64,000 bases of DNA. Source: a virus. This document shows positions 5,881 to 32,718 of this stretch, piece by piece. A model generated the notes under the pieces. The model saw only the letters and a list, made by a program, of their open reading frames with translations, ran no database searches and was not told the origin of the DNA. The first letter of the stretch is position 1. Each line of letters starts with the position of its first letter. The stretch is taken from IMG/VR virus record IMGVR_UViG_3300009071_000006; one strand, given 5' to 3'. The position numbers and the translations under genes were made by a program.

Positions 5881-6030
5881 TTAGCTTGCTCTGCAAATTC
5901 TTAATGCTTCAGCATCCCAAATTTCAGAAAGCCTTGACAGTATCCAAGTCTGACTGTTTTGAACTCTTGCTCTTGTTAAGGCAGAAGTGATTCTTTGAAG
6001 TCTTGGTTGGTGTTGATTTAAGTTGTTCAT
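5881..6030 (-). CDS. Small protein (49 aa), predicted leaderless
   Basis: Own translation: MNNLNQHQPRLQRITSALTRARVQNSQTWILSRLSEIWDAEALRICRAS. The ATG lies exactly 29 nt downstream of the TTGACA at 6065-6060. Confidence 0.4.
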   Translation of the reverse strand: MNNLNQHQPRLQRITSALTRARVQNSQTWILSRLSEIWDAEALRICRAS

Positions 6031-6036
6031 GATTAC

Positions 6037-6065
6037 ACCCTATGAGATGTTTTTCTTTATGTCAA
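6037..6065 (-). promoter_or_regulatory. Sigma70-type promoter: UP A-tract, TTGACA (6065-6060), N17, TAGGGT (6042-6037)
   Basis: Minus strand AAAAAAGTATTGACATAAAGAAAAACATCTCATAGGGTGTAATCATG. Confidence 0.55.
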
Positions 6066-6083
6066 TACTTTTTTAAAGTTTTT

Positions 6084-6488
6084 TTAACTTTTTTCAATTG
6101 CCCACTTACCTTTTTTTAGGCAGTTCATCATAGTCACTATTTCATTTTCAGTAAAACACGCAAAGTCTGCCAATCCAAGATCATGCACCCATAGCTTATA
6201 TCCATTTCTTACTAGCACTTGCGAGTTAGGATATAATAAAGCGTCGTTCGACATTTTAATACACTCGCCCTCAAGTTTTGGTTCTTGTGATTGTCTTAAA
6301 TACATCCTGTCTATACTTCTTTTTATATAAAGTTTTTTTCTTGAATACTGCAAAGCGCTTTTACTTTGATGTAGATAGTGACCTTTTGATGTTTGGTCAT
6401 TTACCCATTGTTTAAATTCGCTAAAAGGAATTGTAGATTCAAACTCTACTTCCGAGAGCCTTTGTTTTAGATATTTTTGATAAAACAT
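6084..6488 (-). CDS. Hypothetical protein (134 aa)
   Basis: ORF track. Start moved to the ATG at 6488, which follows AGAGG and sits just after the stop of the upstream gene (6490). Confidence 0.55.
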   Translation of the reverse strand: MFYQKYLKQRLSEVEFESTIPFSEFKQWVNDQTSKGHYLHQSKSALQYSRKKLYIKRSIDRMYLRQSQEPKLEGECIKMSNDALLYPNSQVLVRNGYKLWVHDLGLADFACFTENEIVTMMNCLKKGKWAIEKS

Positions 6489-6489
6489 A

Positions 6490-6840
6490 TTACCAACCTC
6501 TTGGATGTTCGCCTGTTTTTTGAAAATGGCGTGCTTCTGATACTGAGCATTTAAGATCATCGCAGATATCTGCCAAACGCTCTTCGTCACGCTCTTGTTG
6601 CTGTCTTACTGCTTCGTAAGGATCGTTGTGAGTCTGTGGAAGACTTTGAAGAACCTTCATAAGCTTGTTGAACTTAGCAAAGCTTTTCTTTTGCTCGCAG
6701 TATTTATAAGCAATTTGCTTTAGGCTAAAACCTGTAAGAAAAATTCTTTGTCCGTCAAGGTTTGCATTAAGAGTTACGGATAAAACTTTCTTTCCGTTGC
6801 TTGTGTATTTGTATTCTATTTGGTGTTTAATGTTGTTCAT
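6490..6840 (-). CDS. Hypothetical protein (116 aa), predicted leaderless
   Basis: ORF track. ATGAACAAC start 29 nt after the TTGACA at 6875-6870. Confidence 0.6.
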   Translation of the reverse strand: MNNIKHQIEYKYTSNGKKVLSVTLNANLDGQRIFLTGFSLKQIAYKYCEQKKSFAKFNKLMKVLQSLPQTHNDPYEAVRQQQERDEERLADICDDLKCSVSEARHFQKTGEHPRGW

Positions 6841-6846
6841 GCCTTA

Positions 6847-6875
6847 AACCTACTAAAGAATTTACAACTTGTCAA
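6847..6875 (-). promoter_or_regulatory. Sigma70-type promoter: UP A-tract, TTGACA, N17, TAGGTT
   Basis: Minus strand TTTAAAAAAGTATTGACAAGTTGTAAATTCTTTAGTAGGTTTAAGGCATG. Confidence 0.6.
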
Positions 6876-6903
6876 TACTTTTTTAAAAAAAAATTAAAAA
6901 AAA

Positions 6904-7068
6904 TTAAAGACCCATTTTATTAATCAGATAATTCACGGCTACTTCGCTATTGCCTACTTGCTCTAGTTTATAGCAGTTATCTGATATAATTCCCCAATCT
7001 TGAAGTATTTCGAGTATTTGGCTATCTGAGTATACAGTACCAATTATCCACTTCTGTAAAATATTCAT
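6904..7068 (-). CDS. Small hypothetical protein (54 aa)
   Basis: Own translation: MNILQKWIIGTVYSDSQILEILQDWGIISDNCYKLEQVGNSEVAVNYLINKMGL. ATGA overlap with the stop of the upstream gene. Confidence 0.45.
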   Translation of the reverse strand: MNILQKWIIGTVYSDSQILEILQDWGIISDNCYKLEQVGNSEVAVNYLINKMGL

Positions 7069-7298: not shown

Positions 7299-7476
7299 TA
7301 TATTTCCTTTCTAGTTCTTTGATTCTTTCCGTAAGAAGTCTTATTTCGTATATAAAATAACTTCTTATGTTTTGAATAGCTACTTCGCTTTCTTTTGACC
7401 CAAAGTATGACCCAATAATAAAACCAATGATTGCAGACACTACAATTGTTGCTACAAATTCAATTATTGTTTCCAT
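7285..7476 (-). CDS. Small membrane protein (N-terminal TM helix, coiled-coil tail)
   Basis: ORF track. Hydrophobic stretch IIEFVATIVVSAIIGFIIGSYFG. Confidence 0.55.
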   Translation of the reverse strand: METIIEFVATIVVSAIIGFIIGSYFGSKESEVAIQNIRSYFIYEIRLLTERIKELERKYNGRT

Positions 7477-7715
7477 ATGCTTAGTTGTTCCTTTGTTAGC
7501 TCAGAAGTCATTCCTAACTCGTTAATATACCACCATACTACATTTTTGGTTTCTCCATTTAAGGCATTAAACCATTCCATGTCACAATCCTGTATAGGGA
7601 TTAAGTCATCTAGTTCCTGTAAGGGCAATCCACTTGCGTTAAGAGTGCCTACGCATCTTTGATGTAAGTAACTACCTATGTCACTTAATACTATCTGTTC
7701 ACTTGCTATTGTCAT
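7464..7715 (-). CDS. Hypothetical protein, predicted leaderless
   Basis: ORF track frame. I prefer the ATG at 7715 (MTIASEQ), exactly 29 nt after the TTGACA at 7750-7745, over the listed GTG at 7724. Confidence 0.5.
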   Translation of the reverse strand: MTIASEQIVLSDIGSYLHQRCVGTLNASGLPLQELDDLIPIQDCDMEWFNALNGETKNVVWWYINELGMTSELTKEQLSIWKQ

Positions 7716-7721
7716 GCCCTC

Positions 7722-7750
7722 CACTAAAAAGGGCTATAGATAGATGTCAA
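7722..7750 (-). promoter_or_regulatory. Sigma70-type promoter: UP A-tract, TTGACA, N17, TTAGTG
   Basis: Minus strand TGTAAAAAAAGTATTGACATCTATCTATAGCCCTTTTTAGTGGAGGGCATG. Confidence 0.5.
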
Positions 7751-7758
7751 TACTTTTT

Positions 7759-8097
7759 TTACAAATTAGGTCTTTTAAAATCCTCAAAGATTTTTTTATT
7801 TTTATTTTCTACCTTATTGCACACGCCTAATGTGTGTATTTGCAGGAAGTCCATAAAGCTATCAAAAACCCAATTTAAAGAAGCTGATGCAAAAGGTATA
7901 TAAATCAATTCTACTAAGTTTCTGTCAGTATAGTATTTTGCACTTGCAAGAGCCAAACCTACCCAAAAGCCTAAGCACAGAGAACATGATAATAATTTCT
8001 TTATTAATCCTATCTTGCATAGCAGTTTTCTTGGTGCGTTAAAAATTGACCCATACATAAGGATCATTGTTATTCCTATAGATGCTAGTAAGATCAT
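7759..8097 (-). CDS. Membrane protein, DUF1360-like
   Basis: Three hydrophobic segments and a CSLCLGFW motif resembling the C.WC..FW signature I associate with DUF1360. Confidence 0.4.
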   Translation of the reverse strand: MILLASIGITMILMYGSIFNAPRKLLCKIGLIKKLLSCSLCLGFWVGLALASAKYYTDRNLVELIYIPFASASLNWVFDSFMDFLQIHTLGVCNKVENKNKKIFEDFKRPNL

Positions 8098-8303: not shown

Positions 8304-9414
8304 AATTTGTTATTCGCCTCGCTATCCATTCTGTACAATGAGATGTAATAGCGTTGCCTAGTATTTTATACCTTTGGTTGTCTGATAAATCAATAGTTCC
8401 ATTTTCTAAAATCCAACTGTTGTCGTCAAGCTTCAGTTTTTTTCCTTTTTTTGTAAAGTTATCAGGAAGCCCCTGCAGTCTTTCGCATTCTATTGGTGTT
8501 ATTTTTCTAACTCCTTCTTTGGTAGCAACTCCTACGCCCTCGCCTCCTTGTTGACTTCTCAATGTCATGCAAACATTGATTGACGATTTTGGAGTAGTAT
8601 CCCCATTCCAACTTACTGCAATTTTAGGACCGCTTCCATGAGTACCACCTACTGCTGTAGTGAGAGTGGAAGCTGTTTCTCCTGTGTGGCATCCGTTGTA
8701 AACATCAACTCCTGTAGAGACATATTTGCCGACTTCAGTAGGTTCTCCTTCAATACCTGAGGCATATTCTCTAACTTTCCTCTTCTCTTCGCCCTCAATA
8801 AGATACCCTTTGCCCCTTTCTCTGAAAGATAATATTTTTGAGATGGATTCTCCACTAATATCTCCGAAAGCGCCAAGTACAAAGATTCTTCTCCTGCGTT
8901 GAGGTACGGCTTGCCTAACTCCTCTTTTGTTGCTCCCTCCACTTTGTGGAAAACTGAATCCGACGTATCTAGAGTCCAATATCGTCCATCCGATTGAATT
9001 ATGCCCGACGTTGAGTAAGTCGTTGATGAGCCTCGCAAAGTCATCCCCATTGTTTGATGTGTGGAGTCCAACGACATTCTCAGCCAAGGAATACCTAAGT
9101 CCTCTAGTTCTGAGATGCTGAATAATTCTGATTGCGTGTTCATAAAGAGTAGATCGATTTCCCTTAAATCCTTTTCCTTTCCCTGCTATGCTTAAATCCT
9201 GACAAGGGAAAGAATAGATTAAGCCGTCGGCATCAGGCAAGTCTGCGGGATCAAGTTTTTGCACATCCGCAAACAAAGGTATATTGGGAAAGTTGTATTT
9301 AGCGACAGCAGAGGCATACTTGTCCCATTCAACCATAGCAACCACTTCATGTCCTGCTCTATGTAATCCTAAGTCTCCACATCCTGCTCCACTAAAGAGT
9401 GAAATCCACTTCAT
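8290..9414 (-). CDS. DNA (cytosine-5)-methyltransferase
   Basis: Canonical C5-MTase motifs in order: I LFSGAGCGDLG, IV SFPCQDLS, VI ENV, VIII QRRRRIFVLG, then TLRSQQGG, and IX/X ITPIECERLQGLPDNFT and GNAIT. Confidence 0.9.
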   Translation of the reverse strand: MKWISLFSGAGCGDLGLHRAGHEVVAMVEWDKYASAVAKYNFPNIPLFADVQKLDPADLPDADGLIYSFPCQDLSIAGKGKGFKGNRSTLYEHAIRIIQHLRTRGLRYSLAENVVGLHTSNNGDDFARLINDLLNVGHNSIGWTILDSRYVGFSFPQSGGSNKRGVRQAVPQRRRRIFVLGAFGDISGESISKILSFRERGKGYLIEGEEKRKVREYASGIEGEPTEVGKYVSTGVDVYNGCHTGETASTLTTAVGGTHGSGPKIAVSWNGDTTPKSSINVCMTLRSQQGGEGVGVATKEGVRKITPIECERLQGLPDNFTKKGKKLKLDDNSWILENGTIDLSDNQRYKILGNAITSHCTEWIARRITNYEEE

Positions 9415-9665
9415 TGAAATATGGAAGAGCGAGGAATATCTATTAACTCACAGGAGTTTTCTTTGTTAACTAAACAAGAGCGCAAAGAATTATCTAACCT
9501 AAGTGCCTCATTATGAATTTCCCTAATATCTTCCTGTAACCTTACAGCATTTCTATCTAAATTATTTATTGATATTTTTGCCTCTAAAGCCCCAAGCTTA
9601 AATGCTTGATCAATAAGTTGCTGTGTTTGTTTATATATTACTTGTGTTATTGTTCCTGTTCCCAT
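9411..9665 (-). CDS. Hypothetical coiled-coil protein, predicted leaderless
   Basis: ORF track frame. The ATG at 9665 (MGTGTITQ) lies 30 nt after the TTGACA at 9701-9696. Confidence 0.5.
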   Translation of the reverse strand: MGTGTITQVIYKQTQQLIDQAFKLGALEAKISINNLDRNAVRLQEDIREIHNEALRLDNSLRSCLVNKENSCELIDIPRSSIFQ

Positions 9666-9672
9666 TGTTAGG

Positions 9673-9701
9673 AACACAAAATAATACTTTAATTATGTCA
9701 A
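9673..9701 (-). promoter_or_regulatory. Sigma70-type promoter (TTGACA 9701-9696; weak -10)
   Basis: Minus strand GGTCTTGACATAATTAAAGTATTATTTTGTGTTCCTAACAATG. Confidence 0.4.
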
Positions 9702-9839
9702 GACCTATTTACTTTTTAATCTTTTGCTTAATTTGGATAATTAAATGAATAATTGTAAGTAGACCGCAAGTTGCACCAATCCAAGGAAGACCATAATTGC
9801 TCATCCAAAAGGTTATACCTGTGCCTGTCGCTCCTAATA

Positions 9840-10043
9840 TTACAGGGAATGATTCTCTGATTGTTTCCATGCTCTAACTTCTTGTTTAATTTTTCCTGAT
9901 TTTTTTTGTGTTATAAGAACAGGAGAAATTTTATGATTCAACACAGATGAAGCTTCTACTAGTTCCTTTGAAAGAAATAAAGCTAAACTCTTTGTATATC
10001 CTATTTTTTTAAACCTGTTGTACAATTGATTTCTCAATCTCAT
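9840..10043 (-). CDS. Hypothetical basic protein (67 aa)
   Basis: ORF track. The ATG lies 30 nt after the TTGACG at 10079-10074. Confidence 0.5.
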   Translation of the reverse strand: MRLRNQLYNRFKKIGYTKSLALFLSKELVEASSVLNHKISPVLITQKKSGKIKQEVRAWKQSENHSL

Positions 10044-10050
10044 GAATACA

Positions 10051-10079
10051 CTTAATCAAAAAAAATTAAATTGCGTCAA
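10051..10079 (-). promoter_or_regulatory. Promoter-like element (TTGACG -35) overlapping the stop of the upstream gene
   Basis: Minus strand TTGACGCAATTTAATTTTTTTTGATTAAGTGTATTCATG. Same -35-to-ATG geometry as the TTGACA set. Confidence 0.3.
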
Positions 10080-10294
10080 TTGGTTTTACCCAAAAGGACA
10101 TCCTCGCACCACTTGGATGCTTCTGCTAATGTTCCAAATTTATTACTCTCAACTATTTCTTCTTCTTTTCTTTTTTCCACTAACCATAATCCCTCATTGT
10201 ATAATAATTCTATTTTACAATTAGTTATTGTAGTTGTAGGTGTCGTTATAGTTGCAGATTCCTTATACCATTTAACATTTAGATTTCTATTCAC
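10076..10294 (-). CDS. Hypothetical protein (72 aa, GTG start)
   Basis: ORF track. The GTG lies 29 nt after the TTGACG at 10329-10324. Confidence 0.45.
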   Translation of the reverse strand: MNRNLNVKWYKESATITTPTTTITNCKIELLYNEGLWLVEKRKEEEIVESNKFGTLAEASKWCEDVLLGKTN

Positions 10295-10300
10295 AAAAGA

Positions 10301-10329
10301 CTAAATCTTTTTTATCTTAAGTACGTCAA
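10301..10329 (-). promoter_or_regulatory. Promoter-like element (TTGACG -35) immediately after a terminator
   Basis: Minus strand TTGACGTACTTAAGATAAAAAAGATTTAGTCTTTTGTG. Confidence 0.3.
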
Positions 10330-10334: not shown

Positions 10335-10382
10335 ACCAAAAAAATAGCCCCCTCTCGTCACACCAAGTAAACGAGAGAGGGC
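10335..10382 (-). terminator. Rho-independent terminator
   Basis: Minus strand GCCCUCUCUCG-N14-CGAGAGGGGGC (11-bp stem with one G-U; 10382-10372 / 10357-10347), followed by UAUUUUUUUGGUUUUG. Confidence 0.75.
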
Positions 10383-10829
10383 AGAACAACAACAGTCTTT
10401 AAAATAACTGTGGTTGGTTTTTTATGTCAACGGAATTGGAAAAATTTATAAAAATGATTTCTATGAAAAACCATCTTACCCTGCCCTTCGCTTATCTCCA
10501 TTGAAGGAGTATGGGAATTTTACACACAATTTAATGCATAACCAATTTCACGAAGGACAGGATTTGACGGAAGAAGTAGATCATCAAATTAATGTTTTGT
10601 GGCTTATATTTATGTTTAAGTTTATGATGGAAGGCGCTGATTTTCTCGCTTTTCGATATTTCAATCTCTACTTCTTTTCTTATCTAGTAGTAGCTAATTC
10701 TATACAGTTGTCGTACGTCTTGACTACTTTTAGATAAAGTTTAAAAGTTTTTTTTTGGTTTTGAACTTTTGTTCCCTTCTTATTAGTCGTTTTGCTTGAT
10801 CTGTCGGTCACAAGTCCGTTGCTTAATAT
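10383..10829 (-). ncRNA. Candidate non-coding transcript (~450-490 nt) between promoter 10864-10859 and terminator 10382-10335
   Basis: No minus-strand ORF over 25 codons. Starts with the same ATCATATT sequence as the large RNA. Helices: AAGAAGUAGA (10677-10668)/UCUACUUCUU (10581-10572) and CUGUCCUUCG (10560-10551)/CGAAGGGCAG (10490-10481). Confidence 0.3.
10402..10430 (-). promoter_or_regulatory. Internal promoter-like element (TTGACA 10430-10425, N17, TTATTT) about 40 nt upstream of the terminator hairpin
   Basis: Minus strand CCGTTGACATAAAAAACCAACCACAGTTATTTTAAAGACTG. It shares the TTGACATAAA start with other promoters in the window. Confidence 0.3.
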
Positions 10830-10835
10830 GATTTA

Positions 10836-10864
10836 ATAAAACCATAAGTTATTATTTATGTCAA
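10836..10864 (-). promoter_or_regulatory. Sigma70-type promoter: UP A-tract, TTGACA, N17, TTTTAT, then TAAATCATA
   Basis: Minus strand AAAAAGGGTTGACATAAATAATAACTTATGGTTTTATTAAATCATATT. Near-identical to the promoter at 18401-18373. Confidence 0.55.
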
Positions 10865-10899
10865 CCCTTTTTGATATTTTATTTTAAAAAAGTTTTTCC

Positions 10900-10989: not shown

Positions 10990-12180
10990 CTAATTTAAAG
11001 AGTGCTAGACAAGGTAGGAGTCGAACCTACAAGAGGATAGATTAGACTGCATTCCGCACCTCTCTTATCACCACCTATTTGCAGTTAAGTTAGAACTTGT
11101 TAGCATATAAAATTGATTCGCCCTCACACTCAGCATTGGATTCCGTGTACTTTGGAAGTCGGCTCTAGTGTAAGGACTTGGACTTTGCCACAGGCAGATT
11201 TGACTGATTACCCTGCGAAGTTCTGATGTTATCTCACGGATTGATTCCGTCCGTCCCATTAAAATGTATCCATTGGCTTATCGTCACCTTGGTCAGATGA
11301 TCCGTTGCCTTGTCTTAACGCTTGCCTCACGTAATGCTCGCTTTCACTAAACGCATAGGAGGATTCTATAAGATAGGCTTAGGTATCTGAGTCAAGTTCA
11401 CTCGATGTAAGCACAACCTCAATGGATTAAAATAATTAGATGGCTCTCTGCGCCTCATGGAGTCGTTCGTTGCTCCATGCACCTTCTTCGATAGGGTGTG
11501 TGACTGAGGGTCAGTTGGCACTTACGCATACCTGTTTTATATCTCCGCTTATTAAGGATTCTCTATAATCCTCTGACCTACGACTTGCTTAACGCTTGTC
11601 TCTCCCGAAGAAGGGAAAGCCTACCATTCACAAGCCTTGGTTATTACCACGCTTTAAAGCGCAGAGAGCCATCTAAAAATTAATTTGCCTTTAGGTATGG
11701 TCTAGTACGACTATCGTGTATCACATTGCTCTAACCTATGAGATGGCATCATGAAAGTGGCAGTATCCACAGACATAACACTTGACTCAATAGGGAGTGT
11801 TTTAACACGAATAGCGTAGGCACATTGACCTAAAGACAAGATATTAACTTAGAGTCTACTTTCGTAGGAGAGTAGCTGATTTTCTCTATCCCTCGGTGTT
11901 TCATCTCTCTAAGCTAATATCAAAGTTACTCAATAAAACCTTCCGTTAGCAGGGGCGCCGTCTTCATCTAGGAGCGTCAAGTGGTATTGCCATAGATAGC
12001 AGGGACAAGCGTTAACTTGTTTGCCTCGTTCGATAAGAAAGATTCCTGTGAGCCTAATCGAAAAGTTTTACTGAATAACTTTTGTTATAGTTTTTGTTTT
12101 GATCGGCTTTTGGCTGATCCCCTCTTTAGTCTTTTTGGTCGTGTTGCCTTTTCTTTAGCTCAAGGTGCTTTGTTGAATAT
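10990..12180 (-). ncRNA. Large (~1.2 kb) structured non-coding RNA candidate, class unknown
   Basis: It has its own promoter and terminator and no credible ORF, and it is GC-enriched relative to its flanks. Helices: an 18-bp perfect helix (11676-11659/11453-11436) and a 15-bp helix (11921-11907/11854-11840) capped by a GAAA tetraloop hairpin, plus many local hairpins. The 3' end is tRNA-like. Confidence 0.6.
11004..11104 (-). ncRNA. tRNA-like module (T-arm plus acceptor-like helix) at the 3' end of the large RNA; not a canonical tRNA
   Basis: Minus strand GUAGG-UUCGACU-CCUAC (11030-11014) is a textbook T-arm. It is followed directly by CUUGUCUAGC, which pairs with GCUAACAAG (11104-11096). 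I could fold no anticodon arm. Confidence 0.4.
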
Positions 12181-12186
12181 GATTTA

Positions 12187-12215
12187 AACCTATTGCTTTT
12201 TTTCATAAATGTCAA
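12187..12215 (-). promoter_or_regulatory. Sigma70-type promoter of the large RNA: UP A-tract, TTGACA, N17, TAGGTT, then TAAATCATA
   Basis: Minus strand AAAAAAAATTTCAAAGTAGCTTGACATTTATGAAAAAAAGCAATAGGTTTAAATCATATTC. Confidence 0.6.
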
Positions 12216-12249
12216 GCTACTTTGAAATTTTTTTTAAAACTTTTTTTCT

Positions 12250-14438: not shown

Positions 14439-14588
14439 TTATTTAATGCGGATAAATTTTGCAATTTGGTAATTAGTGTAAAACTTCCACTCTCCTGTTG
14501 CGATTACTTTGAAGTCTACTCCATGAGAAGTTGCTTTAGTTGCTTGAAGTTTTTCGTTAGTGATTAAGTTGGTGTATGTGTTGCTCAT
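14439..14588 (-). CDS. Small protein (49 aa), predicted leaderless
   Basis: Own translation: MSNTYTNLITNEKLQATKATSHGVDFKVIATGEWKFYTNYQIAKFIRIK. The ATG lies 29 nt after the TTGACA at 14623-14618. Confidence 0.45.
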   Translation of the reverse strand: MSNTYTNLITNEKLQATKATSHGVDFKVIATGEWKFYTNYQIAKFIRIK

Positions 14589-14594
14589 ACCCTT

Positions 14595-14623
14595 AACTAT
14601 ATGGAAGAAATGTTTTCTGTCAA
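14595..14623 (-). promoter_or_regulatory. Sigma70-type promoter: UP A-tract, TTGACA, N16-17, TATAGT
   Basis: Minus strand TTTTTTTAAAAAAGTCTTGACAGAAAACATTTCTTCCATATAGTTAAGGGTATG. Confidence 0.6.
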
Positions 14624-14651
14624 GACTTTTTTAAAAAAAGTTTAAATTTAT

Positions 14652-14975
14652 TCAACTTCTTTTTTTCCATCTGTCATTAATCTTATAGTAAGTAGTTGAC
14701 TTTATGCACTTGCCGTTGTGTGTGCTTGCCACTTGCACTTCTATCATGCCCATTGCTAATAACTGCTTTACCACACTAGTAGGCTTTTCTTCCCTGTCTA
14801 ATAGTGTAGCTACATCATTTGCTACCCAATTAATAATTCTCTCTCGCTCATCTTCTATTGCCTTGAGGATTGTTTTTTCTGTTCTCCAATTCCACTCAGG
14901 TTTTAATAATTCTATCAAAACTCTTCTTTGTAAAAAAGTAAATTCACACAATGATATAGTTTGGTAATTTTTCAT
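14652..14975 (-). CDS. Hypothetical protein, possible winged-helix DNA-binding
   Basis: ORF track frame. The start at 14975 forms an ATGA overlap with the upstream stop. The wHTH idea is only a weak impression. Confidence 0.5.
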   Translation of the reverse strand: MKNYQTISLCEFTFLQRRVLIELLKPEWNWRTEKTILKAIEDERERIINWVANDVATLLDREEKPTSVVKQLLAMGMIEVQVASTHNGKCIKSTTYYKINDRWKKRS

Positions 14976-15544: not shown

Positions 15545-15943
15545 TTAATAACTATGGTTGTAATTTACGTAGCAATTTTCTGAACTTAGCTCTCCTTCTT
15601 CTTCGTCTACTATTGGTCTAGCAAGATGTAAAAATCTTAATTCAACGTAAGGCAACTCAACTCCATTAGGATCAAACTGACGAACTTCTGAAATTTCATT
15701 TTCTTGTGCGTATGCCATTTGATGAACTTCTGAAACTTGATCTCCCCAAAGTGATTCTGTTTCTTCTTCCCTTACTCCACCTTCAATCTGAAGCCATCCT
15801 CCATTAAGGTCTGATACTGATGCATCAAAGCCATCTTCTGTTATCTCAATGTCATCTAGTTCTAATCTATCGAACCTTGAGTCATTTACATTTGATGCAT
15901 TTAAGGTTTCTGCGAATGGGCGAATAATTTCTATTAAGTTCAT
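15545..15943 (-). CDS. Hypothetical highly acidic protein
   Basis: ORF track. First gene after promoter 16007-16002. Confidence 0.55.
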   Translation of the reverse strand: MNLIEIIRPFAETLNASNVNDSRFDRLELDDIEITEDGFDASVSDLNGGWLQIEGGVREEETESLWGDQVSEVHQMAYAQENEISEVRQFDPNGVELPYVELRFLHLARPIVDEEEGELSSENCYVNYNHSY

Positions 15944-15978
15944 TTTATTTTATGTTGTTGGTTTTGTTGTCTGTCCTT

Positions 15979-16007
15979 AACCTCTTATATTTATTTCAAT
16001 GTGTCAA
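15979..16007 (-). promoter_or_regulatory. Sigma70-type promoter: UP A-tract, TTGACA, N17, GAGGTT, then AAGG
   Basis: Minus strand ATTAAAAAGGTATTGACACATTGAAATAAATATAAGAGGTTAAGGACAG. This one has a ~35-nt leader. Confidence 0.45.
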
Positions 16008-16039
16008 TACCTTTTTAATATTTTTTCAAAAAAACTTTA

Positions 16040-16941: not shown

Positions 16942-16975
16942 TGTGATGTCTCCTTATTTTATTATGTTATAGTTA

Positions 16976-18316: not shown

Positions 18317-18372
18317 GGTGTGTAATATTTTGGTGTTTGTTGTTGTGAGGTCTCCCTCGTTGTTATGATTTA

Positions 18373-19099: not shown

Positions 19100-19124
19100 C
19101 CGAGGGTGGGGAGGGGCTGATCTA

Positions 19125-23625: not shown

Positions 23626-24437
23626 TTTTCTTTTAATTTAAATTCATACTTTTTATTTTTAATCTCATCCCAATCAATATCCTTTCTCCTTATTAATGGA
23701 TGCGTGAATTGATTCCAAGAATTTTTAACAACGTGCTGTGGTCTGCCAAATCTCCATTTAGTTTCCACTAGCTCTTTGCCCCACACTTCTTCCAATGACC
23801 TCGCCATCAATAATCTTCCATCCTTTTCGTAAAGGTCTGTAGTGTTGCCTCCACTTACTTTCATTGTGGTTATCTTCTCTATAAAAAATGTACAGAAGTT
23901 AATAGTGCATAAATTATTGGTCACGCATTGTAGGCATAAGTCTGTGTCATCGTTATAATACAGCCTGTGCTTGTATGGCATCTCGTTGTTTATTAAACTT
24001 GCTGAGTATACCCTTGTGTTAAGTATGTAGGGCTTTTTCTGCCTCGCTACAAACATTCTATAGTTTAATCCGCTCACTCCTATATTAGAGTACCTGTCTG
24101 TAAATTCTTCTACTATAGAAATTGCTTTGTTTGCATTGCACCTAATCCGTTCTCCTTTGTGTAGCCTACCTACATATCTAATGTTGTCATCAAACTGCCA
24201 ATGCCTAGCAAAGCCGTTCTTTAATGAATGCTCTCTGATCCAAAGCCTTGACCCTAATAATCTCAGATTATTTTCAGGTAGCACTAGCATAATATCTTTA
24301 AACTCTTTGTAGTTTTCTACCTGAGATGGCTCTACTACTATCTTGAAATCTACACCATCCTCAAGAAAGCACCTTATCGTGTGTGCTAACTTATGCCTGT
24401 TTTTTGTTGGCACATAAATTGGGTATTTAGGATTCAC
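23622..24437 (-). CDS. Hypothetical protein, tentatively GT-A-fold glycosyltransferase-like
   Basis: PIYVPTKNR N-terminal strand-loop and acidic QFDDNI / YNDDTD (DxD-like) motifs. The gene is flanked by ParB/methylase genes. A weak call that needs HHpred. Confidence 0.3.
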   Translation of the reverse strand: MNPKYPIYVPTKNRHKLAHTIRCFLEDGVDFKIVVEPSQVENYKEFKDIMLVLPENNLRLLGSRLWIREHSLKNGFARHWQFDDNIRYVGRLHKGERIRCNANKAISIVEEFTDRYSNIGVSGLNYRMFVARQKKPYILNTRVYSASLINNEMPYKHRLYYNDDTDLCLQCVTNNLCTINFCTFFIEKITTMKVSGGNTTDLYEKDGRLLMARSLEEVWGKELVETKWRFGRPQHVVKNSWNQFTHPLIRRKDIDWDEIKNKKYEFKLKEK

Positions 24438-25036: not shown

Positions 25037-25914
25037 TGGTGCTTGTAGTTTTGGATTATTCGCATTGGGTCTAGTGATAGCCCTATTTTATGTTGGCAAG
25101 CTTTGCGAGAGTCCAAAGTCGTAAAACTTCTTTCCGCTAATCCTTTTGCCCTCATGTCTTCATTAAACTTCTGACAAGTAACATATTTTTTTTCATACCC
25201 TAAAGTGTCTAGTATTTGACTAGTCATCACAGGCACAGGATGCGTTATATTATAAGTTCCAAAAGGAGGATTTAAATTTATGCATTTTATAATGGATACA
25301 CAAAACTCTCCTATGTGTGTAACGCTGTTAATTGCGTTTACTATAGTGTCATACTCTATAATTTTTGAGATAAAATTTTTATTATGTTTTCCCAATCCAA
25401 AAAACATTCTAGGTCTCAAAATCCAACAATCTACATTTTCTAGTTGTTGCTCTCCCTCTATTTTAGTTTGAGCATAATAACTGCCTCTAAAGTTTGGTGC
25501 ATTCCTCTCTGACCAACTATCATGTTGCCAATCGTCTATAGTAAAATGCTTTCCTATGTAATCTGTTCTTTCTCTAAGTCTTCCTGTTCTGCCCTGTCCT
25601 TGATATAGGCATCCGCTAGACACATGGACAAATGGAATGTCTTTACAAAACTCCGCTAATCTTTTTGGAATTTTTACATTTGCTGTATGGACGGCTTCTC
25701 TATTTTCAGGTAATTCGCAAGCGTCTACATTTGGCGTTCCTGCATATCCTGCACAGTTCACTACTGCATCTACATTTTTTAAATAATTATTAAATTCTTC
25801 GTCCATCCAAAATTCTGTCCTGCTTATTGTGTGGCACTCATGCCCTGACCTGTTTGCGTTCCACCACACTTGCTCACCAACCCATCCTGTTGAACCTATA
25901 ATTAAAATTCTCAT
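25033..25914 (-). CDS. NAD(P)-dependent sugar epimerase/reductase (extended SDR, RmlD-like)
   Basis: Rossmann MRILIIGSTGWVG, NCAGY, and catalytic YAQTK (YxxxK). Confidence 0.7.
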   Translation of the reverse strand: MRILIIGSTGWVGEQVWWNANRSGHECHTISRTEFWMDEEFNNYLKNVDAVVNCAGYAGTPNVDACELPENREAVHTANVKIPKRLAEFCKDIPFVHVSSGCLYQGQGRTGRLRERTDYIGKHFTIDDWQHDSWSERNAPNFRGSYYAQTKIEGEQQLENVDCWILRPRMFFGLGKHNKNFISKIIEYDTIVNAINSVTHIGEFCVSIIKCINLNPPFGTYNITHPVPVMTSQILDTLGYEKKYVTCQKFNEDMRAKGLAERSFTTLDSRKACQHKIGLSLDPMRIIQNYKHQ

Positions 25915-27335
25915 GCCATTAGTAATTTCGTTGTTTGCTGTTTAAATACCATACCAAATGCTAAGCTGACCGCATCTACTTGGTCATCATTTTTTGAATC
26001 AGGAAAGGCTCTTAGCTCATCTAAAAAATCATAGTTCCATGAGCCTCTAACCATTTTCACTCTTCCTGCATCCACCATACTTAACCAAGGGTTTGCCCTG
26101 CTTAACTTATCCTTAGATACATTTATATTCTGCACTACATTTTTACCTACTCTATCCTCTTTAATCTGTTCGTAAGATGTGTGAAACCCGCCCACGCTTT
26201 CTATGCCTATTCTGTTCTGCTCTAAGTCTCCGTATCTTCCTATGGCTTGTTTAGTAGCGTGCCAATTAAGCTTATCTCTCATTACGTGACTAATGTAGAA
26301 AATTTCTGTTTCTTTATCATATCCGCATAATGCTGAAGCACTATAATCGCTTGTCTTCTTAGAGGTCGCCGCTAAATCCCAAGCTCTCACTAATTCTACT
26401 TCTGTAGGTATTTCGCTTCTTTCACAGTATTCTATTTTTTCTATATCTACAATGTTACCACCTTTAGAAATAGGATTACCCCTGTATAAGGCATTATACT
26501 CATATTGACCTAATACCTGTCTTCTTCCCTCCAAGAAGTGTACAGGCTTATTCTCGCTCCACAAAGCTTCTCCTTCAACTCTGCCAATAATATCATCTTC
26601 TTCTTCACAGATTGCAGGAAAGTTCCATTGCTCAAATACCTGATCCTCAAAGCCTCTTTCTTTTAAGTCTTCTACATAATGCTTTGCCGTAAGCCTTCCG
26701 CATAAATCGTCCTCATGCCATCTAGTCATAATTAAAATAATTGTAGAGTTTGGAGTTAATCGAGTCATTGCTGTTGATGTAAACCAATCCCATATTCTAT
26801 TTCTATATGTGGCTGACTCTGCCTCTGCTCTGTCTTTGTGAGGGTCATCTATTATTAATGTGCTTACCCTGTTTCCTGTAAGTCCTGTACCCACACCAAC
26901 AGCCTTAACTCCACCACCTACTGAAGTAGTCCAATTTGATTGAGTCCTTGTATCTTCTCCTAAATGGGTATTAGGAAATATCTTTTTATATATCGTAGAT
27001 TTAATGCGCTCCCTTAATTTTTTGCAGTTTTTCGTTGGCAAGTCTAAGCCGTATCCTGCTAAAGCTATATTTTCAGTTGGGTCTTTACCTAAAAGAAAAC
27101 TTGCAAACTCTTCACACACAGCACGACTTTTTCCATGCTGTGGAGGCATATTAATTATTATTCTTTTTTCGCCTTCTTTGCCAACAAGCTCTTGTAGTTT
27201 TTTGAGTAAAAAAGCATGAACTTTTGCTACTTGATATTTAGGATCGTGTGCCAATACATAAGCCAATAAATCATCATGTGCTAATCTAGTTAATGCTAAT
27301 CTTGCTTTGTCTACGTCCTCCACGCAAACAAGCAT
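25911..27335 (-). CDS. terL: Terminase large subunit
   Basis: Walker A-like NMPPQHGKS, Walker B LIIDDPHKD, coupling motif TRWHEDDL, and a C-terminal nuclease acidic motif NDDQVDA. Confidence 0.85.
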   Translation of the reverse strand: MLVCVEDVDKARLALTRLAHDDLLAYVLAHDPKYQVAKVHAFLLKKLQELVGKEGEKRIIINMPPQHGKSRAVCEEFASFLLGKDPTENIALAGYGLDLPTKNCKKLRERIKSTIYKKIFPNTHLGEDTRTQSNWTTSVGGGVKAVGVGTGLTGNRVSTLIIDDPHKDRAEAESATYRNRIWDWFTSTAMTRLTPNSTIILIMTRWHEDDLCGRLTAKHYVEDLKERGFEDQVFEQWNFPAICEEEDDIIGRVEGEALWSENKPVHFLEGRRQVLGQYEYNALYRGNPISKGGNIVDIEKIEYCERSEIPTEVELVRAWDLAATSKKTSDYSASALCGYDKETEIFYISHVMRDKLNWHATKQAIGRYGDLEQNRIGIESVGGFHTSYEQIKEDRVGKNVVQNINVSKDKLSRANPWLSMVDAGRVKMVRGSWNYDFLDELRAFPDSKNDDQVDAVSLAFGMVFKQQTTKLLMA

Positions 27336-27687: not shown

Positions 27688-27858
27688 TTAGTTAACTTCT
27701 CTTATTGAATCGATGTAATCGTAGTTTCCGCTTTCCTTAGCAATCTTATAGATAAGTAATCTTGCTTCGTTCTTGCTAGGAGCTTCTACTGAAATAACTC
27801 TCAAGAAAGTTGGCTTTGCTGTGGTGAAATAAACTCTTCCGTTATATGTGTTGTTCAT
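27688..27858 (-). CDS. Small protein (56 aa), predicted leaderless
   Basis: Own translation: MNNTYNGRVYFTTAKPTFLRVISVEAPSKNEARLLIYKIAKESGNYDYIDSIREVN. The ATG lies 29 nt after the TTGACA at 27893-27888. Confidence 0.5.
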   Translation of the reverse strand: MNNTYNGRVYFTTAKPTFLRVISVEAPSKNEARLLIYKIAKESGNYDYIDSIREVN

Positions 27859-27864
27859 GCTCTT

Positions 27865-27893
27865 AACCTAAGAGAATAAATAATACTTGTCAA
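27865..27893 (-). promoter_or_regulatory. Sigma70-type promoter: UP A-tract, TTGACA, N17, TAGGTT
   Basis: Minus strand AAAGTTTTAAAAACGCTTGACAAGTATTATTTATTCTCTTAGGTTAAGAGCATG. Confidence 0.6.
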
Positions 27894-27980
27894 GCGTTTT
27901 TAAAACTTTTTTTAATATTTTTTTTATTACTTTCGTAAGTTGCTGTTTTTAAGCATTTTACAGGAGAAACTTTTTTTGCT

Positions 27981-29756: not shown

Positions 29757-29990
29757 TTATGCGTTGATGATTGGGGACATTGAGTAAGTTCCTAAAGGTG
29801 AAAAGTATTGCTGTCCGTTGTAGCTTTTTACTGCTCTGCGTTGCACTCCCTTTGTGCATGATCCTGTAAACCATACTGAAGACTTAGATGTCTTTACGAT
29901 ATTAAATGAAAAGATGCAGTCATAATCACAGGCTGATCTAGTTGTGTAAGTTTTTCCTACTTGGAATTGATTTGGTGTTGTGTTGTTCAT
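29757..29990 (-). CDS. Small protein (77 aa), predicted leaderless
   Basis: ORF track. ATGAACAAC start 29 nt after the TTGACA at 30025-30020. Confidence 0.55.
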   Translation of the reverse strand: MNNTTPNQFQVGKTYTTRSACDYDCIFSFNIVKTSKSSVWFTGSCTKGVQRRAVKSYNGQQYFSPLGTYSMSPIINA

Positions 29991-29996
29991 GACTTT

Positions 29997-30025
29997 AATA
30001 ATGCATATCTAAAAATAGATGTCAA
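29997..30025 (-). promoter_or_regulatory. Sigma70-type promoter: UP A-tract, TTGACA, N16-17, CATTAT/ATTATT
   Basis: Minus strand TTTAATAAAAGTATTGACATCTATTTTTAGATATGCATTATTAAAGTCATG. Confidence 0.55.
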
Positions 30026-30058
30026 TACTTTTATTAAAAAACTTTGCTTTTCTTTAAA

Positions 30059-30435: not shown

Positions 30436-30446
30436 TGTTGTTCTCC

Positions 30447-30665
30447 TTATATTACCATGTTGTTCATTTGTGCTGTAATAAAAGCACCTTCGTTAATTTG
30501 TGAAAGCTCTTCTTCAAAGCATTCGTCTCCAAAGTCTTGTACTAATACTTGTGGCTCAGGAAGTGATGCAAGCGTTTTAAGGATCAACTCACGATCTTCA
30601 AACTCTACGTCTGTGATTCCGAAGGTGTGGGCTGTGCGATCTAATGTATCTGTGTTGTTGTTCAT
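30447..30665 (-). CDS. Small acidic protein (72 aa), predicted leaderless
   Basis: ORF track frame. ATGAACAACAAC at 30665, 31 nt after the TTGACA at 30702-30697. Confidence 0.5.
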   Translation of the reverse strand: MNNNTDTLDRTAHTFGITDVEFEDRELILKTLASLPEPQVLVQDFGDECFEEELSQINEGAFITAQMNNMVI

Positions 30666-30672
30666 GCCCATA

Positions 30673-30702
30673 TATATACATGGAAACATGAATAGATGTC
30701 AA
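30673..30702 (-). promoter_or_regulatory. Sigma70-type promoter: UP A-tract, TTGACA, N18, TATATA
   Basis: Minus strand TTTTAAAAAGGTGTTGACATCTATTCATGTTTCCATGTATATATATGGGCATG. Confidence 0.55.
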
Positions 30703-30773
30703 CACCTTTTTAAAATAAATTTAAATCTATTTCATAAGTAGCTGTTTATAAGCTATATAAAATTTAAAAAAAA

Positions 30774-31085
30774 TTAAGAAAATAAATCCATTTGTTTTAC
30801 TTCATGCATTCTCTCTTCTTTGCTTTTGGCTAATTTAGACCATTTCCAACTTACCAAGCTAAAAGTTTTTCTGCCATCAGGTAGTGGGTATTTGGGCGTT
30901 ATCCCTTGTGCTGTTACTTCGCCCTTGTCTACTTCCTCAGGATGCACAAACCTACTCTCTCCTTCGTGCGTGAACTGAATGCCCATACCGCTTCTCTGAC
31001 AAGCCTCTACTATGTAGCACCTAGCATCTGCTAATCCTCTGTAAATCTTCGTTACCTTTACAGGCATATATCGTACTTCACTCAT
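30774..31085 (-). CDS. Hypothetical protein
   Basis: ORF track. Confidence 0.55.
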   Translation of the reverse strand: MSEVRYMPVKVTKIYRGLADARCYIVEACQRSGMGIQFTHEGESRFVHPEEVDKGEVTAQGITPKYPLPDGRKTFSLVSWKWSKLAKSKEERMHEVKQMDLFS

Positions 31086-32040
31086 GTTCTTGATCCTCCT
31101 CTGCTTCTTGCATTCTTTGTTTAAGTTTTTGCCATTTCTCTTCTGCTGTTTCTTCCTTCACCTCATCCGCATTAATTGCTGTGGCTAAATCTTTATCTAT
31201 TTGCTCTACCTCTTGTGCAAAGTACTCCAATGCTTTGTCTTCTACATTATCCTCATTTACCTCACATCCATTAATAATCGACATTTCTTCTTCTGTAGGG
31301 TTTACAGGAGCAACACTTACCCAATCTTGTGGCGTGCTTTTTATTTCTTGCTTGTCGCATAGTCCTGAGAACTCACAGTACTTGCATTGCCATTCCTCGT
31401 CCTTTTTTAGCTTAGCCTCTGCATCAGGAAGTATATTATTTAATAGCGCTTGATGAAGATCATTAGCTTTCCTCCACAAGTCCTGTAGTGCAAATTTATC
31501 TCTTTTAACTTCAAAGAATGCTGTCTTCAATGTGTTTGGTTCTAGGTATAATATTCCTGCCTTAGCACTTGGTGAAAACATTAAGTAAGGCATTACTTGT
31601 GCTACATGGTGTGGCATAGGCATTGTCTTTCTTCCCCTTGGGCTAGGTATCCTTGCTGTTGTCTTTACCTCAATAATCTCATAACCATCGTCTGTTGTTA
31701 TTAGGTTGTCTATCCTTCCCCTAATAACAAAGTCTTCCCTAAGGTCAGGCATTACTATTGAAACCTCATCCCTAAGAGTTCCACCTATTTGATCTACGTG
31801 CATTCTGAGCCTGTCAGTAATCCATTCGTGCAATAGATTTCCACGCTCAAACACTTTAAGCATCCTGACCTCTTCTTCCCTGTCTGCTTCCTCTAGTTCT
31901 ATGCCTTGATACTTGTACCAAGTTTTACGAATGCAATTACCAAGGTCTGTGCAGTAATACTCGCCTACTTGCCTTTCCCTGTTGTGGCTTTCGTTCTCCT
32001 TGATTAACTGATCGCCAATAATCTTTTCAATATCAATCAT
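31078..32040 (-). CDS. PD-(D/E)XK nuclease, Cas4/RecB-like with Cys cluster
   Basis: N-terminal C (YYCTDLGNC), nuclease core GRIDNLI...IIEVKT, QVMPY, and C-terminal CKYCEFSGLC. This is the Cas4-type four-Cys arrangement. Confidence 0.65.
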   Translation of the reverse strand: MIDIEKIIGDQLIKENESHNRERQVGEYYCTDLGNCIRKTWYKYQGIELEEADREEEVRMLKVFERGNLLHEWITDRLRMHVDQIGGTLRDEVSIVMPDLREDFVIRGRIDNLITTDDGYEIIEVKTTARIPSPRGRKTMPMPHHVAQVMPYLMFSPSAKAGILYLEPNTLKTAFFEVKRDKFALQDLWRKANDLHQALLNNILPDAEAKLKKDEEWQCKYCEFSGLCDKQEIKSTPQDWVSVAPVNPTEEEMSIINGCEVNEDNVEDKALEYFAQEVEQIDKDLATAINADEVKEETAEEKWQKLKQRMQEAEEDQEHE

Positions 32041-32210
32041 TTAATTTTTTCTAGTATTTGACTGCCTTGCATAATTTTATTCTCTAGTAACCTAGACATA
32101 GGTATCCCTAGCTTATCTGCTTCCTCTTTAAGCTTTTCTTTGCACTCTTTCGATAATCGAAATGTATGGCGCTTCTTTTTTAAGTCATTTGGTAGTTTAT
32201 GTCTGCCCAT
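32037..32210 (-). CDS. Ribbon-helix-helix (CopG/Arc-like) DNA-binding protein (57 aa)
   Basis: Own translation: MGRHKLPNDLKKKRHTFRLSKECKEKLKEEADKLGIPMSRLLENKIMQGSQILEKIK. It has a strand-helix-helix pattern. ATGA overlap with the nuclease gene. Confidence 0.5.
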   Translation of the reverse strand: MGRHKLPNDLKKKRHTFRLSKECKEKLKEEADKLGIPMSRLLENKIMQGSQILEKIK

Positions 32211-32213
32211 TGT

Positions 32214-32681
32214 TTATCCTATATTTATGTAGTTTATATCGTTTTCTATAGATTCTGAAAATTCGTGAGTCCACTCATCTGTAAATATACAATCGTCTAA
32301 TTGCATTTCATGTCTCTTACTTGAGTCTAAATAAATTCTGCATGGCAATTGCATTCCTCCCATGTCTATTATCTCTTGATGGGCATGGTAGTGGTGTGGC
32401 GCTCCCTCTAATCTATCTATGGCATTGATGTCTCGCACTGAGTACACTTCGCCTTTTATTTGATGTCCATGAGTTTCCCATCCATCACGATTAGAAACAT
32501 ATGGTAAGCCCCAATGCTTATATAATAAAAATGGCGTTTCTGTTTTTCCTTCCGAAATAAAGGTTTCGTTTTCTAAAAACCTATGATTGTGAAAGGTGCG
32601 TTTAAGTGTCCCATAAACAAACAAAGGTATTCCTCCTCCAAGCTTGTTTAAGATTTCGTTTGTTGTTGGTATTATTGTCAT
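32214..32681 (-). CDS. Gamma-glutamylcyclotransferase (AIG2/GGACT-like)
   Basis: LFVYGTLKRTFHNH...GEVYSV...IDRLEG...Y matches the GGCT-like fold signature (YGTLK ... G.LY ... LD..EG). Confidence 0.65.
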   Translation of the reverse strand: MTIIPTTNEILNKLGGGIPLFVYGTLKRTFHNHRFLENETFISEGKTETPFLLYKHWGLPYVSNRDGWETHGHQIKGEVYSVRDINAIDRLEGAPHHYHAHQEIIDMGGMQLPCRIYLDSSKRHEMQLDDCIFTDEWTHEFSESIENDINYINIG

Positions 32682-32688
32682 GCTGTAA

Positions 32689-32718
32689 ATATATCAACAT
32701 GACTAACTTATTTGTCAA
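32689..32718 (-). promoter_or_regulatory. Sigma70-type promoter (TTGACA 32718-32713 overlapping the upstream stop codon), 31 nt from the GGCT ATG
   Basis: Minus strand AAAAAAACTTTAAAGTCTTGACAAATAAGTTAGTCATGTTGATATATTTACAGCATG. Confidence 0.45.

Follow-up and report, generated by a model that had tools for sequence, protein, structure and literature searches.

Actinobacteria, Deinococcus and archaea typically have leaderless first cistrons. The classic leaderless mRNA, lambda cI mRNA from PRM, is made by the host sigma70 polymerase, starts with AUG and has no Shine-Dalgarno sequence. UP-element promoters such as rrnB P1, the T5 early promoters and T7 A1 give leadered RNAs. In genomes of GeneMarkS-2 group C, which is rare in Proteobacteria (5.6%), first genes of operons have a -10 box 6-8 nt upstream of the start codon, and the remaining genes carry ribosome-binding sites (PMC6028130). 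According to a remark in PMC5312081, leaderless transcripts are common in phages, whereas phiKZ has none (PMC8244752). Leaderless mRNAs, the -10-to-ATG geometry and the occurrence of both in phages are already known. New is an undescribed marine phage lineage, represented by the 64,000-nt viral stretch IMGVR_UViG_3300009071_000006 ("the window", meaning the whole stretch of DNA that was analysed), which has this arrangement at about half of its consensus -35/UP promoters, together with a conserved AUG-AAC-AAC beginning of the genes and apparent cassette exchange.

The window covers about three quarters of an uncultivated, circularly permuted phage genome of about 84 kb. Its GC content is 37%, and nearly every gene lies on the minus strand. 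The phage resembles group C (Actinobacteria, Deinococcus-Thermus) in the -10-to-start distance, in the absence of a Shine-Dalgarno sequence at the first gene and in the dual pattern of first and later genes, but differs in its GC content, in its perfect TTGACA with UP-like tracts and in its Shine-Dalgarno use (about 22% of genes). Whereas lambda has a single weak, activator-dependent repressor promoter, at least ten constitutive-looking promoters with consensus -35 boxes and UP-like tracts head operons of small ORFans in the phage. With rrnB P1, the T5 early promoters and T7 A1 they share A/T tracts, a near-consensus -35, a sub-optimal -10 or spacer, a discriminator containing G/C and predicted initiation on A.

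We describe the spacing by d, the distance from the first T of the -35 hexamer to the A of the ATG, so that gaps of 29, 30 and 31 nt correspond to d = 35, 36 and 37. Sites are named by the position of the start codon and promoters by the first T of the -35. A sequence-only reading of the window had listed eleven minus-strand -35/start pairs with gaps of 29-31 nt, and all eleven coordinates proved right. It had assigned an A-tract, a -35 and a -10 to every one of them; eight are strong in this respect, but 9665, 10043 and GTG 10294 are weak. Two further sites were not in its list, 33486 in the window and L082:14119 just outside. The sites with a start codon at the predicted +1 are the following:

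33010-33551, minus strand: TTGACC at 33516-33521, 16-nt spacer, TATAAT, 7 nt, ATG 33486 (d = 35); 158-aa gene at 33010-33486.
32214-32748, minus strand: A-tract, TTGACA at 32713-32718, TATATT, ATG 32681 (d = 37); 155-aa GGACT-domain gene at 32214-32681.
30447-30732, minus strand: A-tract, TTGACA at 30697-30702, TATATA, ATG 30665 (d = 37) with ATGAACAAC; 72-aa gene.
29757-30055, minus strand: A-tract, TTGACA at 30020-30025, CATTAT, ATG 29990 (d = 35) with ATGAACAAC; 77-aa gene.
27688-27923, minus strand: A-tract, TTGACA at 27888-27893, TAGGTT, AAGAGC, ATG 27858 (d = 35) with ATGAACAAC; 56-aa gene.
14439-14653, minus strand: T-tract and A-tract, TTGACA at 14618-14623, 16-nt spacer, TATAGT, ATG 14588 (d = 35); 49-aa gene.
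9840-10329, minus strand, weak: TTGACG at 10324-10329 to GTG 10294, directly 3' of a terminator hairpin.
9840-10329, minus strand, weak: TTGACG at 10074-10079 without an A-tract, -10 ATTAAG, ATG 10043.
9411-9731, minus strand, weaker: TTGACA at 9696-9701, poor -10 TGTGTT, ATG 9665 (d = 36); 84-aa gene, certainly coding.
7464-7780, minus strand: A-tract, TTGACA at 7745-7750, weak -10 TTTAGT, GGAGGGC, ATG 7715 (d = 35); 83-aa gene.
6490-6905, minus strand: T-tract and A-tract, TTGACA at 6870-6875, TAGGTT, TAAGGC, ATG 6840 (d = 35) with ATGAACAAC; 116-aa gene.
5881-6095, minus strand: A-tract, TTGACA at 6060-6065, TAGGGT, GTAATC, ATG 6030 (d = 35) with ATGAACAAC; 49-aa gene.
L082:14119, outside the window: d = 36 with ATGAACAACAC; upstream of RecU and portal genes.

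At 8-10 of these sites, a -10 box (TAGGGT, TAGGTT twice, TATAGT, TATATT, TATAAT or CATTAT) lies 5-7 nt before the ATG. With a spacer of 16-19 nt and a -10 of 6 nt, the ATG begins at the 7th or 8th base past the -10. The T-run before 10329 is part of the terminator hairpin at 10400-10345; the GTG 10294 site has no A-tract, and its -10 is poor. The ORFs (open reading frames) at 10043 and 10294 are coding, with doubtful promoter status.

The spacing was far from random. An ATG at d = 35 followed 7 of the 26 minus-strand TTGACA hexamers (binomial P = 2e-6), and an ATG at d = 35-37 followed 10 of the 26 (P = 6e-6), against a background ATG frequency of 0.024. We also applied a uniform rule (TTGACA, A-rich sequence upstream, first ATG opening an ORF of at least 40 aa). 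By this rule, d was 34-38 at 14 of 27 sites in the phage clade, compared with 4 of 269 in unrelated IMG/VR contigs (Fisher p = 1.5e-13). A matched control consisted of 120 unrelated IMG/VR stretches carrying the identical 15-mer AAAAAAGTATTGACA (123 sites). In only 4 of these 123 cases did the first ORF-opening ATG fall at d = 35-38; most lay at d = 50-90. TTGACA alone was not enriched in the window (34 observed, 46.8 expected), and a generic promoter and terminator scan found no excess of consensus promoters (54 versus 63.6 expected). The signal is the combination of A-tract, TTGACA, TAnnnT-type -10 and ORF-opening ATG at a fixed distance, not the count of hexamers.

Alignment of 18 family members on the -35 revealed A/T tracts whose phase is roughly one helical turn (A at -65 to -63, T at -58 to -56, A at -55/-54, T at -48 to -45, A at -44 to -40). 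These are followed by G at -38, T at -37 and an invariant TTGAC, with A as the sixth base in 17 of 18 members. The -35 is thus perfect in 17 of 18, and the -10 is mostly of the TAnnnT type and poor in 3-4; spacing between these sigma70-type boxes is 16-19 bp. The sequence-only reading had equated the A-tract with the proximal UP subsite at -46 to -38. The tract is indeed present, but at -44 to -40 it lies two bases nearer to the -35. The UP-like tracts are a candidate site for the alpha C-terminal domain, in a register 2 nt off the quoted subsite.

Downstream of the -10, the consensus favours T at -8 and -7 and A at -5. Of the 18 members, 11 have C at -1, 13 have A at +1 and 11 have T at +2. 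Only 14% of the other genes in the window have a C at -1. Bacterial RNA polymerase prefers a pyrimidine at -1 and a purine at +1. The C-A-T at the predicted start is also present in family members that are leadered (ATAACAAC, ATATTCAAC, ATATTAAGC) and therefore belongs to the promoter rather than to the coding sequence.

At seven further promoters of the family, no start codon is found at +1 (18401, 16007, 12215, 10864, 10430 and 4430 on the minus strand, 19070 on the plus strand):

18316-18431, minus strand: TTGACA at 18396-18401, TTTTAT, predicted +1 at ATAACAAC (18366), 50-nt CA-rich leader, ATG 18316.
15943-16037, minus strand: TTGACA at 16002-16007, GAGGTT, predicted +1 at AGACAACAAAACC, CA-rich leader of about 29 nt without Shine-Dalgarno, ATG 15943.
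10990-12245, minus strand: TTGACA at 12210-12215, TAGGTT, predicted +1 at ATATTCAAC; heads an ORF-free stretch of about 1.2 kb.
10345-10894, minus strand: TTGACA at 10859-10864, and TTGACA at 10425-10430 followed by the terminator hairpin at 10400-10345 about 30 nt after +1.
4354-4460, minus strand: A-tract, TTGACA at 4425-4430, A-rich leader of about 40 nt, ATG 4354.
19040-19110, plus strand: A-tract, TTGACA at 19070-19075, 18-nt spacer, TAAAAT; upstream of the lone opposite-strand gene (ORF 19083-19514).

Leaderless placement had been described as systematic. It holds for 10-11 of about 18 family promoters, and because about seven promoters of the same family are leadered, the arrangement is frequent rather than universal or obligatory. 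On the sequence evidence, we consider it likely that about half of the promoters place the predicted transcription start on the A of the ATG and would thus give leaderless mRNAs.

The predicted 5' ends of the mRNAs point in the same direction. The ten leaderless candidates are G-poor and have an A+C fraction of 0.69 versus 0.58 (p = 0.007). Folding of the first 40 nt gives a mean minimum free energy of -1.0 versus -3.0 kcal/mol (p = 0.005), with a value of 0.0 in 7 of the 10. All strong sites start with ATG. Published determinants of leaderless translation are an accessible start codon, an AUG and a leader of zero length (PMC8459731), and CA repeats downstream are reported to enhance such translation (PMC9031893). 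CA-repeat and (CAA)n downstream enhancers are attributed to Martin-Farmer and Janssen (1999), as cited in PMC9031893. The phage is similar in that its leaderless ORFs start with AUG-AAC-AAC-AC and in that leadered transcripts and Shine-Dalgarno spacers are CA-rich. It differs in that the element is natural and belongs to a conserved promoter-plus-start module; by analogy, it may enhance translation as well.

No Shine-Dalgarno sequence was found at a functional distance from the ATG of any leaderless candidate. As noted from the sequence alone, AAGG- or GGAGGG-like purines, where present, are only 1-3 nt from the ATG, and there are none at 6030, 29990 and 32681. In the systems that have been studied, Shine-Dalgarno pairing needs more room than 1-3 nt. 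In this phage with low Shine-Dalgarno use, the clearest AAGGAGA sites, with CA-rich spacers of 6-8 nt, are often found on the cistron that follows a leaderless ORF (27677, 14416, 30435). The cistron with ATG 14416, after the 14588 gene, has AAGGAGA, and the one with ATG 27677, after the 27858 gene, has the Shine-Dalgarno-like AAGGGGG.

The small ORFs behind these promoters are real, protein-coding genes, because differences between orthologues (window versus L232 or L001) fall mostly on third codon positions. Counts for first, second and third positions are [4, 2, 24] for 6840, [6, 2, 31] for 9665, [4, 3, 15] for 10043, [2, 1, 6] for 6030, [7, 3, 12] for 30665 and [18, 9, 29] for 7715. The 6840 protein has homologues at 93%, 52% and 46% identity, the 32681 product is a GGACT-family enzyme, and independent gene-calling pipelines also predict these small ORFs. 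There is no in-frame ATG, GTG or TTG within the first 50 codons of the 6030, 6840, 14588 and 9665 ORFs, and none in the entire 14588 ORF. If these ORFs are translated at all, the start must be the promoter-proximal ATG.

Public annotations differ on several start codons. The 30665 gene is called from in-frame ATG 30689 or 30671, inside the promoter (80 versus 74 aa between assemblies), and the 7715 gene from its ATG or from GTG 7724 (83 versus 86 aa between assemblies). Gene callers also place a start at ATG 18382, inside the spacer of the 18401 promoter. The promoter-to-ATG geometry would fix the N-termini of small phage ORFans in cases where callers based on ribosome-binding sites disagree.

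The geometry is conserved in relatives of the phage. In L232, which is about 90% identical, d is kept in 8 of 8 orthologous promoter pairs, with 100% identity in the -35 and 75% in the spacer. At the 7750 promoter (ATG 7715), the L232 orthologue retains d = 35 by a 1-nt deletion and a compensating 1-nt insertion. L232 also carries an extra cassette with its own promoter at d = 35. In L001, the orthologue of 32681 keeps d = 37 with a diverged spacer, and the orthologue of the 33486 site reads TTGACC-16-TATAAT-6-ATG (d = 34). In L243 (71% identity in the large terminase, TerL), 2 of 3 promoters are at d = 35. Relatives with about 60% TerL identity (L003, L004/L219, L005) have 3, 4 and 4 promoters, respectively, with a start at d = 34-38. 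These include orthologous trios with unrelated spacers and one GTG start; a few promoters are leadered. The more distant L228 (48% GC) has a homologue of the 6840 protein (52%) behind TTGACG-N29-ATGAACAACAC. In the 20 kb inspected from phages with 44-47% TerL identity, the pattern was not seen.

Further observations from relatives concern the promoters themselves. In L228 (8334, 9972, 10807, 11612) and L230 (9398, 11718, 12372), an 11-mer, GACGGGCAACA, directly follows the -35 (TTGACG followed by GACGGGCAACA). Copies of it are repeated in both orientations, including on the reverse strand, in early intergenic regions of the GC-richer relatives. It resembles an operator or a phage-specific promoter element, and no equivalent was seen in the window. 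L243 encodes, among its early genes (18409-18648), a 79-aa protein with a Sigma70 region 4 domain (PF04545). This protein is a possible modulator of -35 recognition, and a counterpart in the window was not identified.

Promoter and start of the gene appear to travel together. ATGAACAAC occurs in six copies on the gene strand and in none on the other strand, and five of the six are located at a promoter +1. The L082:14155 promoter and its positional counterpart L232:14684 share the promoter and ATGAACAACACAAC (MNNTT), and then lead into unrelated proteins. The 27893 promoter (ATG 27858) is joined to a different gene in L001 (L001:9263) and in L243. L001 has an additional gene between two ATGAACAAC copies, and there the 30665 orthologue is a second cistron, with GGAAGGAGA now upstream. 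These arrangements suggest cassette exchange at a conserved promoter-plus-start module. We tentatively raise the possibility that the clade uses a portable leaderless module (UP-like tracts, TTGACA, -10, C-A(+1)-TG, AUG-AAC-AAC-AC) that accepts unrelated ORFs by recombination. If so, an acquired gene would be transcribed and translated without a ribosome-binding site of its own. With its UP element, G/C-containing discriminator and start with ATP, such a module would resemble rRNA promoters and could tie early expression to host growth.

From the sequence we infer where transcription starts, which polymerase and sigma factor are used, that the 5' AUG is translated, and when and how strongly the promoters act. 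The non-structural genes would be arranged in short operons, each with a promoter at its head that serves the host's primary sigma70-type RNA polymerase and consists of phased UP-like A/T tracts, TTGACA, a spacer of 16-19 nt, a TAnnnT-type -10 and a purine-rich discriminator ending in C. The holoenzyme would bind the UP, -35 and -10 elements and use ATP to initiate at the first base of the ATG, 7-8 nt downstream of the -10. The resulting mRNA would have neither a 5' untranslated region nor a Shine-Dalgarno sequence, and ribosomes would bind directly to its 5'-terminal AUG, presumably helped by the unstructured, A/C-rich start of the coding region (often AUG-AAC-AAC). Later cistrons would rely on Shine-Dalgarno sequences (AAGGAGA), on start-stop coupling or on A/C-rich sites of a non-Shine-Dalgarno type. 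The earlier proposal of sigma70-type promoters with +1 on the A of the ATG has thus gained support from enrichment, conservation, the C-A-T, the unstructured A/C-rich 5' ends, the lack of other start codons early in four ORFs and the coding nature of the ORFs. The same proposal had supposed the promoters to be strong and early; one family member is located directly upstream of the RecU and portal genes.

Several points weigh against leaderless expression from these sites. The -10 boxes at 7715 (TTTAGT), 9665 (TGTGTT) and 29990 (CATTAT or ATTATT) are poor, so that the exact start could be 1-3 nt off; d spans 34-38 in relatives; and about seven promoters of the same family are leadered. Only a few of the promoters have an upstream terminator, and the same genes are therefore probably also internal cistrons on read-through polycistronic RNA, where the purines next to the ATG (AAGG, GGAGG) might aid translation. 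In the 32681 gene, the TTG at codon 20, immediately ahead of the conserved FVYGTLK motif, is a possible alternative start and is preceded by a perfect Shine-Dalgarno sequence, GGAGGAGG; the gene's 19-residue N-terminal extension is conserved in L001 from residue 1. Finally, the capacity of the host to translate leaderless mRNA is an assumption.

Some of these points would fit a situation in which the promoters are real and expression runs mainly through leaders of 1-5 nt or read-through RNA, with the adjacent purines as a close-set ribosome-binding element and only an approximate match between +1 and ATG. The range of d across relatives, the lack of an upstream terminator at most promoters and the purine runs 1-3 nt before many ATGs, including a perfect AAGGAGG one base from the ATG in L228, are in its favour. 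Yet such purines are missing at 6030, 29990 and 32681, they are too close for Shine-Dalgarno pairing as far as studied systems go, and the downstream cistrons that do use Shine-Dalgarno sequences have spacings of 6-8 nt. Together with the C(-1)A(+1) and the sharp peak at d = 35, which indicate a fixed start on the A, this makes expression through short leaders unlikely. It seems quite improbable that the spacing was merely inherited, i.e. that a duplicated ATGAACAAC promoter module serves as a recombination junction for cassettes and was not selected for leaderless expression. The distribution of ATGAACAAC on the gene strand, the pair L082:14155/L232:14684 with only ATGAACAACACAAC in common before unrelated proteins, the L001 gene inserted between ATGAACAAC copies and the association of the 27893 promoter with a different L001 gene all speak for duplication and recombination. 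However, sites without ATGAACAAC (32681, 7715, 14588, 33486) share the geometry, leadered members keep C-A-T at +1 as a promoter property, and the spacers between -35 and ATG vary widely among sites and diverge between orthologues while d is kept, once by compensating indels.

The sequence-only reading had itself allowed that the spacing could be a by-product of module duplication. Modules have been duplicated and recombined, yet d persists at places where the sequence has changed, so that function and origin do not exclude each other. Inheritance would explain the origin of the spacing and not its function, because any promoter module with a start codon at its end already is a leaderless expression cassette. 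We give very little credence to the idea that the promoter-proximal ORFs are untranslated 5' leaders or small RNAs, with a 5' AUG that is incidental or recruits ribosomes for a downstream Shine-Dalgarno cistron. Most of them are indeed short ORFans of 49-116 aa without PHROG or Pfam match, several are followed by genes with a strong Shine-Dalgarno sequence, and regulatory roles of 5'-terminal AUGs in E. coli are among the findings reported in PMC4965119. Against this stand the third-position bias (e.g. at 6840 and 9665), homologues at the protein level with 46-52% identity, a product recognisable as a GGACT enzyme, and the fact that ORFs of 49-155 codons remain open in an AT-rich genome.

If transcripts do start on the A of the ATG, this suggests that the host translates leaderless mRNA well or that the phage exploits rapid expression independent of Shine-Dalgarno sequences. 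The geometry could aid host prediction, and the compact module could be a useful expression part. Searches for the host itself gave little. In tblastn searches with TerL, portal and primase against cultured phages, identities did not exceed 37% and hosts were mixed. A TerL scan of 185,579 species genomes returned only matches of 22-35% in unrelated metagenome-assembled genomes, and TerL homologues in a set of 5.8 billion proteins indicated no host for close relatives. The contig of one relative is part of a metagenome-assembled genome labelled Legionellales, which we considered too weak and did not use. An actinobacteriophage, as a host-based explanation for the leaderless starts, found no support: no WhiB-like Cys/WGG motif was found, and there is no close cultured actinophage relative.

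A Bacteroidota host was considered in view of the low Shine-Dalgarno use. Promoters for the Bacteroidota factor sigma-ABfr (-33 TTTG, -7 TAnnTTTG) resemble the phage promoters in a superficially similar TTG-N20-TAnnTT, and low Shine-Dalgarno use and A-rich starts are shared as well. In F. johnsoniae, the -7 element is TAHHTTTG, with essentially no G at -10/-9, an invariant G at -5 and a weak -33, and 87% of the predicted transcripts in the probable-promoter set have leaders of more than 10 nt (PMC6847099). A host of this type is unlikely given the -10 boxes of the phage (TAGGTT/TAGGGT, with GG at -10/-9), the A at -5 and the perfect TTGACA.

With regard to the genome as a whole, a terminase identical to that of the window is encoded on North Sea metagenome contigs of about 84 kb (JGI 3300009508; ENA KRUG19), which are circular permutations of each other.

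25911-27335: large terminase (TerL).

A megablast search against cultured phages gave no match, and TerL identity to cultured phages is below 33%. No relatives were found in IMG/VR with the amidoligase or the 6840 protein, and a metagenome scan with the primase yielded short contigs only. No record was found for the 995-aa protein at the end of the window, and the inspected sequence falls about 10 kb short of the full genome. The window contains no tRNA genes and no Rfam families above threshold, and Pfam searches of the eight largest ORFs detected neither an RNA polymerase nor a sigma factor.

The window also encodes several DNA methyltransferases, a PD-(D/E)XK nuclease, an amidoligase, TAGT and further DNA-modification genes. 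Genes of the kind that typically hypermodify DNA bases are found in three regions (16123-18037, 23622-24437 and 32214-32681). They comprise two TAGT glycosyltransferase-like genes, an amidoligase, a GATase and GGACT, together with several C5 and N6/N4 methyltransferases, of which one carries a ParB_N fusion. In relatives, Tet_JBP is present in addition (L081 14951-15802; L243 6222-7735). A cluster of glycosyltransferase, sulfotransferase and methyltransferase genes (34000-42554) lies between the promoter-rich region and very large, unannotatable ORFs of up to 1617 aa at about 42.5-64 kb; there are no TTGACA-family promoters between 34 and 64 kb of the window. At 4517-5692, a 391-aa protein with an AcrVA2-like domain (PF26125), kept in L228 and L232, is a possible anti-CRISPR protein.

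Additional observations were made near the leadered promoters. The 10859-10864 and 18396-18401 promoters are near-duplicates from -35 to +4 (TTGACATAAAT[A/C]ATAA..TATGGTTTTATTAAATCATA), and the sequences downstream differ. At TTGACA 10425-10430, the hairpin GCCCTCTCTCGT...ACGAGAGGGGGC and its T-run predict a transcript of about 60 nt, possibly a small RNA, that is kept in L232 (1065). On the plus strand, a sub-threshold match to the manA RNA motif (RF01745; 41.3 bits versus a gathering score of 55.2, E = 6.6e-9) at 18859-19030 spans the full model and lies in an ORF-poor region directly upstream of the sole plus-strand promoter and gene.

The ORF-free region at 10990-12190 (minus strand, about 1.2 kb) downstream of the 12215 promoter is a candidate large non-coding RNA. 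Terminator-like hairpins are located 5' of the 12215 promoter and 3' of the ORF-free stretch, just before the 10864 promoter. Rfam searches of the region gave nothing convincing, and its conserved 16-mer core had only chance matches in other IMG/VR phages. The stretch ends in a tRNA-like T-arm (GGTTCGACTCC, about 11020), and ARAGORN reported a tmRNA/tRNA-like 3' end at relaxed thresholds only. Two blocks, at about 11428-11682 and about 11106-11268, are conserved in nucleotide sequence in L228 and L230, the 48% GC relatives, where they likewise lie in ORF-free DNA (nhmmer E = 1.7e-19 and 2e-8).

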